Assembly (NCBI GenBank): GCA_947306185.1
Contig: CAMZFU010000001.1
Span: 23,952 to 87,951 of the forward strand
Origin: an uncultured Pseudomonadota bacterium
GTDB lineage: Bacteria; Pseudomonadota; Alphaproteobacteria; Rs-D84
Direction of reading: 5' to 3'
DNA length: 64,000 nucleotides
Each line of letters opens with the position of its first letter. The stretch's first letter is position 1. Shown piece after piece: positions 6,491-39,819 of the stretch. The notes beneath the pieces were generated by a model. That model worked only from the letters and a program-made list of their open reading frames with translations, searched no databases and was not told the origin of the DNA. A program made the translations under genes and the position numbers.

Positions 6491-6612
6491 CTTTGAACTC
6501 CCAACATATTTTGTATTTGCGTATCTACATACCCGTCTTCGTTCGCTTCACTCACTACGCTACAACACTGATTTTTTTAACCGTGCGCAATGCGCGGGAC
6601 AACAAAAATTCG

Positions 6613-11381: not shown

Positions 11382-11506
11382 TTATGCACTCCTTACTATA
11401 TGGATGATATAGTATAGACCAAAAATACAAATTGTCAATACAAATATATAATTTTTTGTGGCGATTATCCAAAAAATGAAAACCAGGATAGCCCCGGTTT
11501 GAATTT

Positions 11507-11530
11507 TGGTAGCGGCGAAGGGATTGCACA
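11507..11530 (-). repeat. Direct repeat: partial copy of tRNA-Met 3' end (acceptor strand plus CCA plus flank)
   Basis: +strand gaattttggtagcggcgaagggatt (from 11501) recurs at 11671-11699. On the minus strand both copies read AATCCCTTCGCCGCTACCAAAATTCAA. Confidence 0.8.
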
Positions 11531-11652
11531 TTCCCATCGCTGTGCGACGGGAACCCTTTCCACTCGTAAGGCTCGATCGGCGCATACGCCCGTTCTCGCC
11601 AACTATCGTGTCGGACCCGGGGTCCTTATCTTTCTCTACTAACCAAAAATTA

Positions 11653-11673
11653 AACCCCGAATAAATCGGGGTT
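11653..11673 (-). terminator. Terminator hairpin immediately 3' of tRNA-Met
   Basis: aaccccgaataaatcggggtt with T/A runs on both sides. Confidence 0.6.
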
Positions 11674-11680
11674 GAATTTT

Positions 11681-11755
11681 TGGTAGCGGCGAAGGGATTC
11701 GGACCCCTGACCAAAGGATTATGATTCCTCTGCTCTACCACTGAGCTACGCCGCC
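11681..11755 (-). tRNA. tRNA-Met (anticodon CAT; elongator Met or lysidine-modified Ile2 cannot be distinguished by eye)
   Basis: Reverse complement GGCGGCGTAGCTCAGTGGTAGAGCAGAGGAATCATAATCCTTTGGTCAGGGGTCCGAATCCCTTCGCCGCTACCA. Clean cloverleaf, anticodon loop ATCATAA. Confidence 0.85.
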
Positions 11756-11912
11756 ATACTAAAATGACCGCATTATTATAACAATAATTTTCTCAATTGC
11801 AAGAATTTCTGTCAAGATATATAAATAATATGAATTTGTTCCGCTTTTTGACATTTATTATTTTATATATCGTATTTGTAAATATCGCAAAGATATTGTA
11901 TAATGTTTGGTA

Positions 11913-39385: not shown

Positions 39386-39487
39386 AATTTATTATTATAT
39401 CACAAATAGTTCAAAAGTAACAAAAAACCGCCATTTTTTTAAATTACACTTTCGAACTTTTTGTAGGTATTGGGAAACAAATAAAAA

Positions 39488-39510
39488 CTTGCCCCGGTGG
39501 GCAAGTTTTG
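39488..39510 (-). terminator. Terminator hairpin after tRNA-fMet 3'-end duplicate
   Basis: CTTGCCCcggtGGGCAAGtttt (+ strand). On the minus strand it is followed by a T-run. Confidence 0.55.
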
Positions 39511-39516
39511 AAACTC

Positions 39517-39536
39517 TGGTTGCGGGGGATGATTTC
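39517..39536 (-). repeat. Direct repeat: partial copy of tRNA-fMet 3' end including CCA
   Basis: +strand tggttgcgggggatgatttc vs tRNA tggttgcgggggatggatttg at 39688-39708 (one indel). Confidence 0.8.
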
Positions 39537-39654
39537 GCTCGCGCGGCAACTGCGGATTTTTGCCTTTGGCAAACCGGCGTGTTTCCACCCGCCTAATCCT
39601 TGTGGTGAACCACCTTACCCCGGTGATTCAACCATCATAACTATTAAAATAAAA

Positions 39655-39675
39655 ATGTGACCGTATTGGCCACAT
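39655..39675 (-). terminator. Terminator hairpin immediately 3' of tRNA-fMet
   Basis: atgtgaccgtattggccacat flanked by A/T runs. Confidence 0.6.
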
Positions 39676-39687
39676 TTTCATTTTAAC

Positions 39688-39764
<77 letters not shown>

Positions 39765-39819
39765 ATAAACGGCACTAATTATAAATCATATTTTTTTGTT
39801 GTCAAACGAAATATGAATT

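Follow-up and report, generated by a model that had tools for sequence, protein, structure and literature searches.

Is the second copy of its own 3' end that follows a tRNA-Met gene the scar of an integrase, or is it part of something else? The question arises from a 64-kb stretch of DNA (the window), in which a first-pass annotation had noticed that the tail of tRNA-Met(CAU) recurs a short distance downstream. The repeat is real: the 19-mer AATCCCTTCGCCGCTACCA has two exact copies and no more, on the minus strand at 11681-11699 and 11507-11525, and a second match by chance is not expected, as none of 100 dinucleotide shuffles gives any match. The identity is exact over 22 nt, made up of the tail of tRNA-Met (last 19 nt) and AAA (second copy 11525..11504), and reaches 27 of 28 positions if one 1-nt indel in the A run is allowed, the trailer AAATTCAA included. 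Start-to-start measurement gives a spacing of 174 nt, just as annotated; the second copy had been placed at 11501-11530 and lies rather at about 11499-11525 of the minus strand. The hairpin with T-run described behind each copy is present, and GC-rich, in both cases (terminators T1 and T2, Table 1), the palindrome of T1 being lengthened by an A tract before it and a U tract after it. The order on the minus strand is tRNA-Met, T1, E1, T2, where E1 is the GC-rich segment between the terminators with the 3' end ...GGGAATGTGCAATCCCTTCGCCGCTACCA. The tRNA has an unusual T loop (UCCGAAU) and, upstream, a sigma-70-like promoter (TTGCAA-16-TATAAT, 11802..11775). A like architecture, also reported in the first-pass annotation, is found at tRNA-fMet: an exact repeat of 16 nt (CATCCCCCGCAACCAG) with a spacing of 171 nt, the approximately 118 nt between the terminators ending in AAATCATCCCCCGCAACCA. 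At both loci the element (E1 or E2) sits between two intrinsic terminators, right behind the tRNA gene and in the same orientation. The tRNA-Thr and tRNA-Val genes of the window are without any such tail duplicate.

Table 1. Positions of the features at the tRNA-Met and tRNA-fMet loci of the window
Feature	Position	Strand	Description
tRNA-Met(CAU)	11681..11755	minus	75 nt; found by ARAGORN and Rfam
Trailer and intrinsic terminator T1	11646..11680	minus	stem-loop 11673..11653, U tract after it
E1, type-A tRNA-tail element	11507..11645	minus	139 nt; predicted four-way junction closed by P1
5' arm of E1	11619..11645	minus	diverged antisense copy of the last 27 nt of tRNA-Met; begins UGGU
Helix P1			5' end of E1 (UGGU..AGUCGCGA) with 3' end (UCGCCGCU ACCA)
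Hairpin P2	11613..11625	minus	GGACC-CCG-GGUCC; antisense T-arm strand paired with sense T-arm 5' half
Core X	11526..11610	minus	85 nt; interrupts the T loop of the sense tail copy
Arm P3			long, variable, compensated hairpin on a CAC/GUG base
T-arm-like stem AGGG/CCCU of E1			carries the inserted hairpin UUCCC..GGGAA
Sense copy of tRNA tail	11504..11525	minus	T-loop 3' part, T-stem 3' strand, acceptor 3' strand, ACCA, AAA
Intrinsic terminator T2	11472..11503	minus	stem-loop 11500..11480, U tract after it
Remnant of a further 5' arm, TGGATAATCGCCA	11459..11471	minus	11/14 identical to the family consensus TGGTATAGTCGCGA, as read from the sequence
tRNA-fMet (initiator-type CAU)	39688..39764	minus	consensus promoter 39805..39778
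E2, type-B tRNA-tail element	39517..39634	minus	118 nt; 77.7 bits with model R2

Relatives of E1 were sought in species-representative genomes with an exact-pattern scan, which returned five loci, all from uncultured rumen Alphaproteobacteria, and in metagenomes with a pattern chosen outside the tRNA-derived part, which returned 10 loci, nine of them true: eight lie behind tRNA-Met and one is a variant in a tRNA-His array, while L009 is a chance match inside GC-rich coding DNA and was dropped. All relatives are uncultured MAGs or metagenome contigs. Taking both scans together, E1 follows tRNA-Met in 12 of 12 distinct related sequences, always directly after the tRNA and a terminator, and the family as a whole occupies the tRNA-Met locus in 17 of 17 (12 with a type-A and five with a type-B element), all from one clade of uncultured Alphaproteobacteria of the rumen and gut. 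E1 copies have a mean pairwise identity of 88%; the value is 67% for T1, 62% for the promoter region of the tRNA and 32-36% further out in the flanks. The sequence of tRNA-Met is identical across all nine genomes compared. A lack of conservation of the enclosed segment, which would have spoken against the first-pass annotation, is contradicted by the contrast between element and flanks. Gene content downstream of the locus varies between genomes, and the neighbouring PagL-like protein has more than 500 relatives in the databases.

The consensus fold of E1, obtained with MAFFT and RNAalifold, is a four-way junction. Covariation was counted on 13 sequences: 95.8% of the paired cells can pair, compared with 33-46% when the partners are slid, and nine pairs have changed on both sides, compared with none to three for the slid partners and a number that none of 500 shuffles reached. 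The paired cells that are not Watson-Crick comprise 21 G.U and no A.C, indicating that the strand that folds is the tRNA-sense strand. Comparison of the copies shows that E1 is under purifying selection for both its sequence and its predicted structure, with the proviso that the covariation would be the same for an RNA and for a folded single DNA strand. Of the two internal stems that had been proposed from the single sequence, ggaccccgggtcc is real and conserved and corresponds to P2; gggaatgtgcaatccc does not form a simple hairpin, its GGGAA pairing with an upstream UUCCC and its CCCU with an upstream AGGG in the consensus fold. A protein-coding reading was also considered, as an ORF of 119 amino acids spans 11382-11741: it overlaps the tRNA, and it was excluded because orthologues differ from each other by indels of 1-2 nt.

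Both ends of E1 derive from the tail of tRNA-Met, in opposite orientations. The first 27-29 nt are a diverged reverse complement of the last 27 nt of the tRNA, such that the 5' arm is the complement of ACCA, the acceptor 3' strand and the T arm. This antisense match has a score of 20 in the E1 of the window (equalled by 22 of 2000 shuffles) and of 25 in the family consensus, in which TGGTATAGTCGCGAGTGGATGAGGACCCC is aligned to TGGTAGCGGCGAAGGGATTCGGACCCC (equalled by 4 of 2000). Next after the antisense arm comes the 5' half of the T arm in sense orientation (GGGTCCGA, 11618..11611) and then core X, inserted at about nt 57-59 of the tRNA; the sense copy resumes at AATCCCTTCGCCGCTACCA. The core itself consists, in this order, of the invariant CGACACGAUAG, P3, the invariant CGAGUGGAAAGGG, the hairpin UUCCC..GGGAA and UGUGC. 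In the predicted fold, antisense T arm and sense T arm meet in P2, and the antisense acceptor strand with UGGU meets the sense acceptor strand with ACCA in P1. Model R1, built from E1, weakly matches tRNA-Met itself via the leader and the acceptor strand. The CGAGUGGAAAGGG stretch of the core resembles a D loop: as read from the sequence, AGUGGAA is identical to the tRNA D loop AGUGGUA in six of seven positions. The same reading finds a T-loop-like UGCAA kept in the core, and the U tract of T1 together with the A tract after ACCA could extend P1 by 4-6 pairs in a precursor.

In L010 and L013 the 3' end of E1 is mutated (GCCGGTACTA) and the paired position of the 5' arm has changed from G to C (TATACT), which restores pairing within E1 and would break pairing with the unchanged tail of the tRNA. 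The partner of the 5' arm is thus the 3' end of E1 itself, which makes P1 a genuine intramolecular helix and includes the 5' arm in the folded structure. Ends that agree with the local tRNA are found in most copies; the scores of the tail-derived ends were compared with 2000 shuffles in seven cases, and in none did more than 40 shuffles do as well. In every element the first four bases, UGGN, covary with the discriminator base of the local tRNA: the pairs are UGGU/ACCA at tRNA-Met, UGGUUG/CAACCA at tRNA-fMet and UGGG/CCCA at tRNA-His. The copies compared show a predicted fold that is closed by P1, with NCCA base-paired to UGGN.

The element behind tRNA-fMet is not matched by model R1 and has a different core between similar ends: UGGUUG (the complement of CAACCA) is followed by a hairpin of antisense and sense T arm, a core folding as a three-way junction and AAAUCAUCCCCCGCAACCA, and the element is framed by terminator hairpins at 39635-39687 (before) and 39509..39484 (after). 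The argument that the recurrence at tRNA-fMet speaks against chance was therefore right, with the specification that the second element belongs to a related family with another core and like ends. As the ends are modular, the type-B alignment was confined to the core; 10 of the 17 pairs of this three-way junction are compensated, and model R2 finds one tRNA-His copy from outside its training set at E=0.0015. The type-B core is found behind three different tRNAs. L005, L008 and L012 have it in a second unit that comes after E1 and carries the tail of tRNA-Met at its end; L011 has two in tandem behind tRNA-His, beginning with UGGG, the complement of CCCA, and with the tail of tRNA-His at the end. 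It also occurs in the more distant relatives L023-L028, at the syntenic locus (neighbouring PagL-like protein 58-66% identical), behind a different, canonical tRNA-Met of 77 nt. The hairpin of these distant relatives copies the local T arm exactly, GGACTTGAACCCCCG being the reverse complement of 15 nt, and in L027 the last 17 nt of the element are the tail of the local tRNA-Met.

Integration of tyrosine-integrase islands and prophages leaves the 3' end of a tRNA gene directly repeated (attL/attR), and elements that have such att flanks yet lack recombination genes are known as CIMEs (PMC5704250 for review; PMC6323972 for a catalogue). An intact tRNA followed by a same-sense copy of its own 3' end (19-22 nt here, 16 nt at tRNA-fMet) resembles such a scar, and so does a polymorphism of presence and absence with exact boundaries. 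The T loop is a classical crossover sublocation of integrases, and the repeat of E1 begins inside the T loop. Unlike a scar, the unit measures merely about 175 bp and is gene-free, its conserved interior carries compensatory changes and it includes an antisense copy of the tail. Between the repeats of the window, neither the ORFs nor Pfam searches of the neighbouring genes reveal an integrase or a gene remnant, only 139 nt of non-coding sequence; the genes neighbouring E1 have Pfam matches of the housekeeping type, and no integrase is near E1 or E2 within the window. Larger islands, for which the first-pass annotation had proposed a comparison with relatives, do exist at tRNA-Met, and all of them leave E1 outside. 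L012 has a complete island of approximately 3.5 kb with a DUF3800 gene and a tyrosine integrase (domains HTH_17, Arm-DNA-bind_3 and Phage_integrase), arranged as intact tRNA, the island's own terminator, about 3.5 kb of genes, a 45-nt copy of the tRNA (anticodon loop to CCA), T1, E1, a second terminator and a type-B unit; L004 and L022 contain the two ends of islands like that of L012. In all three cases the island lies on the tRNA side and E1 stays with the chromosome. Because their 45-nt repeat begins in the anticodon loop, the true islands use another crossover point, and none of them contains an E1 from which the unit of the window might derive. The footprint of an integrase, or a decayed island, as the first-pass annotation had it, does not agree with these data: there is no integrase remnant, the interior is conserved and compensated rather than debris-like, and the repeat of real islands differs. 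Its other suggestions, a small RNA with a tRNA-like end or a miniature element targeting tRNAs, fit much better. Judged from the comparison of sequences, the repeat behind tRNA-Met is no integrase scar but forms one end of an element that is conserved and has a predicted fold.

No known family accounts for the element. Rfam covariance models, to which the first-pass annotation had pointed, were run on the whole window at gathering scores and on both loci at E up to 10; they return true tRNAs only and no family matches E1. A tRNA or pseudo-tRNA is rejected, as ARAGORN and, with E allowed to rise to 10, RF00005 match nothing beyond the four genuine tRNA genes. No tmRNA, in one or two pieces, is detected by ARAGORN in the window, there is no Rfam match to one, and the acceptor copies tRNA-Met, not tRNA-Ala. 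YrlA and bacterial Y RNAs have no Rfam match at E up to 10, and the neighbours are PagL-like, UDG and uncharacterised genes. The motif GAUGAG-P2-CGAC resembles the core of a hammerhead ribozyme, but the position of A14 is a C in all copies, the core is not kept (GAUAAG in the window, GAAGAG in L002) and no ribozyme of Rfam matches. The antisense and sense tail copies form two ends like the terminal inverted repeats of a MITE or REP-type repeat; such repeats are expected in many dispersed copies, and the 64 kb contain one E1 and one E2. An integron cassette array is excluded because no integrase adjoins any array examined and the junctions read ...GCTACCA / TGGTATAG... instead of the attC core GTTRRRY. 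Of the patterns scanned against viral contigs, one had a single match (L006), a chance match inside a coding region, and the type-B pattern retrieved nothing; BLASTN against phage records and plasmid records gave no match. Such elements were not found described in the literature, structured-RNA surveys included, and no database searched in this analysis holds the family.

Comparisons with known systems lead to the same result. Like the tRNA-like domain of tmRNA and like YrlA, E1 has an acceptor-like helix with an NCCA end and pairing 5' and 3' ends, a T-arm-like stem with a UGCAA loop and a D-loop-like AGUGGAA; unlike them, it matches none of the tRNA, tmRNA and YrlA models, its CCA is base-paired rather than free, its tail is copied from, and covaries with, the neighbouring tRNA, and it has no linked rsr or smpB context. 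With integron attC cassettes and the folded attP of CTX phage it shares units separated by imperfect palindromes, conserved ends with variable yet paired centres, the newest unit nearest to the anchor and one strand alone that appears to fold. It differs in having neither IntI nor another recombinase nearby and no GTTRRRY core, in carrying a non-coding, structured segment as its cargo and in being anchored at the end of a tRNA gene; its mobility is hypothetical. Pairing of UGGN with NCCA, covarying with the discriminator base, recalls the T-box discriminator and also the leader-trailer pairing of tRNA-like precursors such as MALAT1-mascRNA (PMC8457004); in contrast to a T box, the pairing in E1 is intramolecular and closes the molecule, and there is no specifier, antiterminator or regulated downstream gene. 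Here a third of the tRNA recurs in the order direct, inverted, direct, and its first junction holds a terminator hairpin, which is also the layout of tandem inversion duplications. These arise by snap-back at short palindromes and have been described in Salmonella; they would explain the origin of the ends, but not the conserved cores or their upkeep. The E1 family fails a defining feature of each system compared.

How the units behave in different genomes bears on what they are. Start-to-start, they measure 171-177 nt at both loci of the window and at the tRNA-Met locus of nine relatives. Tandem copies are found in L011 and L025. Truncated second copies, in which the 5' arm alone follows T2, occur in L003, L007, L015 and L016 and in the window (11471..11459), the remnant of the window being comparable to the longer ones of these four relatives. 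In L008 and L012, which have a type-A and a type-B unit, the type-A unit is the nearer to the tRNA. T1 and T2 are often identical inside one genome, whereas comparison of genomes reveals at least four different hairpins at the two positions; this pattern suggests gene conversion, or exchange across the conserved arms. In some relatives a module with a small GIY-YIG gene lies at exactly the element junction; this gene is absent from the window and thus not a required partner. Profile searches with R1 and R2 found no dispersed copies in the window and 27 sources.

At tRNA-fMet the element is present in two of five lineages (the window and L020) and absent from L017, L030 and L032, in which ...CGCAACCA runs straight into the terminator that follows the element in occupied alleles. 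The flank downstream of the empty site of L030 is shared with the window and that of L017 with L020 (96% over 176 nt). The E2 elements of the window and L020 differ about as much as their hosts do and their stems are compensated; because the divergence of E2 is close to that of the hosts, an element that is old and has been lost cleanly several times, by deletion between the 20-nt repeats, is no less likely than one that was inserted several times. The clean loss from several lineages indicates that the element is accessory rather than essential.

A decayed remnant of an integrase island, att-flanked or a CIME, would explain a direct repeat that begins in the T loop of a tRNA gene which is a real integration site in relatives, but we regard it as highly improbable: nothing of an integrase or other gene is left inside, the unit sizes are alike at both loci and in the nine relatives, the real islands have their own terminator and longer repeat and leave E1 outside, the antisense arm would be unexplained, and the conservation and covariation are incompatible with debris. 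Just as little credit can be given to a functionless by-product, a pseudo-tRNA in decay that arose when the 3' region of the tRNA was duplicated in tandem or in inverted form. The tRNA-derived ends and the truncated and drifting copies would be expected of it; against it stand the identity of E1 compared with its flanks, the compensation in nine type-A pairs and in 10 of 17 type-B core pairs, a core without counterpart in the tRNA and the persistence of the element despite flanking direct repeats, which favour deletion. A cis-acting module of the tRNA operon, acting without a free RNA as double terminator and structured spacer, is improbable too. It might insulate downstream genes from the tRNA promoter or guide the processing or decay of read-through transcripts, and its antisense arm could pair with the tRNA tail. 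The position between two good terminators right behind strongly promoted tRNAs is always the same, together with the tRNA tail the antisense arm makes T1 part of a long hairpin, and as the genes downstream are not the same from genome to genome, whatever role there is goes with the tRNA. Yet the compensatory change in L010 and L013 favours the element's own 3' end over the tRNA tail, tRNA-Thr and tRNA-Val do without such a module, and an 85-nt core with invariant unpaired stretches, in two types, is far beyond the needs of termination.

A non-autonomous mobile cassette is the main rival, if a rather unlikely one. Terminator and element together would insert at the CCA end of tRNA genes by site-specific recombination, the single-stranded palindrome of tail, terminator hairpin and antisense arm folding to imitate the duplex end of the tRNA gene, and the cores would be either cargo or needed for mobilisation. 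The exact presence and absence at tRNA-fMet (window and L020 versus L030, L017 and L032, with flanks matched for L030 and L017), the arrays and tandem copies, a newer type-A unit nearest to the tRNA before an older type-B unit, the occurrence of either core type with different tRNA tails, terminator variants shuffled among positions and genomes, a remnant of the antisense arm after the last terminator even where no further element follows, and the GIY-YIG module inserted at the identical junction all agree with this. Several observations do not: the elements have no linked recombinase, each locus has a single copy and none is dispersed in the window and 27 sources, viral contigs, phage records and plasmid records have none, and the invariant unpaired stretches of the core are not expected of mere cargo. 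The clean absences are explained equally by deletion between the 20-nt direct repeats. Every relative has E1 at the syntenic site, with a divergence that follows the host's, which indicates a long vertical residence. A more specific version, for which we see a low probability, has the elements as cassettes of RNA genes whose homing to the CCA end of tRNA genes relies on a folded hairpin imitating this end, with both ends rebuilt from the target tRNA; this would be integron-like, with a cargo that is a mimic of the acceptor end and interferes with, for example, a toxin, an integrase or a priming reaction.

We favour, with moderate confidence, the reading of E1 as a member of a previously undescribed family of structured elements derived from tRNA tails, which most probably act as RNA. 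The clean absences, the tandem and truncated copies and the presence of one core behind three tRNAs suit a selfish cassette as well. A conserved promoter for the elements was not found at the E1 and E2 loci or in relatives. The one candidate, TGGTATAGT, which is extended -10-like in many E1 copies, lies inside the 5' arm of the folded molecule, is degenerate in the window and is absent from type-B and His copies. Because no conserved promoter of its own is present and the 5' arm, which starts directly behind the U tract of T1, is included in the folded structure, the element would most likely be made by read-through of a leaky T1 from the strong tRNA promoter. The transcript would end at T2 and may then be trimmed to the closing helix in the manner of a tRNA 3' end. 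The identity of the tail may be kept by common descent and by gene conversion from the adjacent tRNA, with the antisense arm presumably following by compensatory change. For the origin of the ends, the direct-inverted-direct order of tails around a terminator palindrome would be the expected product of snap-back template switching. The weakest step is the function: the element could serve as a stable mimic of the acceptor/T-arm end of a tRNA, with the conserved core binding a partner. In some genomes (L023, L025, L010) the 3' end has drifted from the tRNA; exact mimicry of the tail is thus not needed for persistence, and this weakens the proposed function as a mimic.

For annotation, the locus calls for caution: a tRNA followed by a copy of its own 3' end is routinely called an integrase scar, and this would be wrong here whether the elements are RNAs or cassettes. 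As cassettes, they would be the smallest units known to target the ends of tRNA genes and a new way to build att-like sites out of a folded strand. If they are RNAs, they would represent a new class of tRNA-linked structured RNA with a modular core and ends copied from the tRNA in both orientations, a design that suggests interaction with whatever reads the acceptor/T-arm end of tRNAs.

The tRNA-Met gene of the window (anticodon CAU; 11681-11755, minus strand), behind which the type-A tRNA-tail element E1 lies, has the same sequence in each of the nine genomes that offered a complete gene for comparison. The tRNA has an unusual T loop (UCCGAAU, with C where the universal U55 is expected) and also carries A32; in more distant relatives, the syntenic site holds a canonical 77-nt tRNA with the T loop UUCAAGU. 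The tRNA-Met(CAU) may be an elongator tRNA-Met or a tRNA-Ile2 (lysidine).

In three related loci, tRNA-Met houses small islands with a tyrosine integrase that has HTH_17 and arm-binding domains, together with DUF3800; the island of L004 also carries RhuM. The att repeat is 45 nt long and runs from the anticodon loop onward, and both att sites are adjoined by repeated TTACAC / TCTACAC motifs, which look like arm-type sites. L004 has a second tRNA 3' half of the same kind at about 6883, and thus two islands may lie in tandem.

Features in the window and in related loci (L numbers)
Feature	Locus	Position	Strand	Remark
tyrosine-integrase island	L012	936-4547	+	
tyrosine-integrase island	L004			
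tyrosine-integrase island	L022	1-2246		
serine recombinase ORF, large	L017	4588-6195	-	Resolvase, Recombinase, Zn_ribbon_recom domains
GIY-YIG module	L014	11299-11654	-	
GIY-YIG module	L005	212-567	+	
GIY-YIG module	L008	2814-2899	+	leader only
GIY-YIG module	L015	8520-8756	+	
tRNA-Thr trailer	window	6520-6612	-	
putative methionyl-tRNA synthetase-like gene	window	62511 onward	+	
third unit behind two tRNA-His elements	L011	2002-2141	+	type-A core
type-B element with internal duplication	L026	about 1010-900	-	

The serine recombinase ORF of L017 starts about 180 nt downstream of tRNA-fMet and, as called, extends across the flank and the antisense strand of this tRNA, the latter encoding its C-terminus (...MDLNHRPSGYEPDELPDCSTPR): the call may be over-extended, or the gene may have been completed by integration.

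Some relatives also have a module inserted exactly 3' of an ACCA end, either that of E1 or that of a type-B unit (same end design, other core); there is no copy in the window. It consists of a leader of ~120 nt, with a long hairpin and a perfect extended -10 box (TGGTATAAT), and a 79-aa ORF that is a GIY-YIG catalytic domain alone (Pfam E about 1e-14). Directly behind the L005 module, 37 nt of the 3' end of E1 are present as a further copy. A homologue of the ORF (44% identity) lies immediately downstream of tRNA-Thr.

The trailer after E1 in L004 and L005 (CGAATTTTCGTT..TCCCGC..GTTAAGAAAATTCAGT..GCGTAG) resembles the tRNA-Thr trailer of the window (CGAATTTTTGTT..TCCCGC..GTTAAAAAAATCAGTG..GCGTAG); one trailer/terminator module seems to be common to different NCCA ends. 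About 120 nt downstream of tRNA-Val, the window has the start of the predicted methionyl-tRNA synthetase-like gene (N-terminus MSEKYLITSALPYVNNQLHIGHL..., judged by sequence alone), for which no connection to the Met-tRNA elements was seen.

The third unit of L011 has the core CGACACGATAG ... GAGTGGAAAGGG, a degenerate T-arm part and a 3' end (GCGCGTCCGCAACCA) that exactly matches neither tRNA-His nor tRNA-Met. In one type-B element of L026, about 50 nt are duplicated internally, with ACAAATTTGCGCAGATACGTTGTGGCATGATATGCCACAACGAAT present twice, which shows that slippage is ongoing inside the elements.
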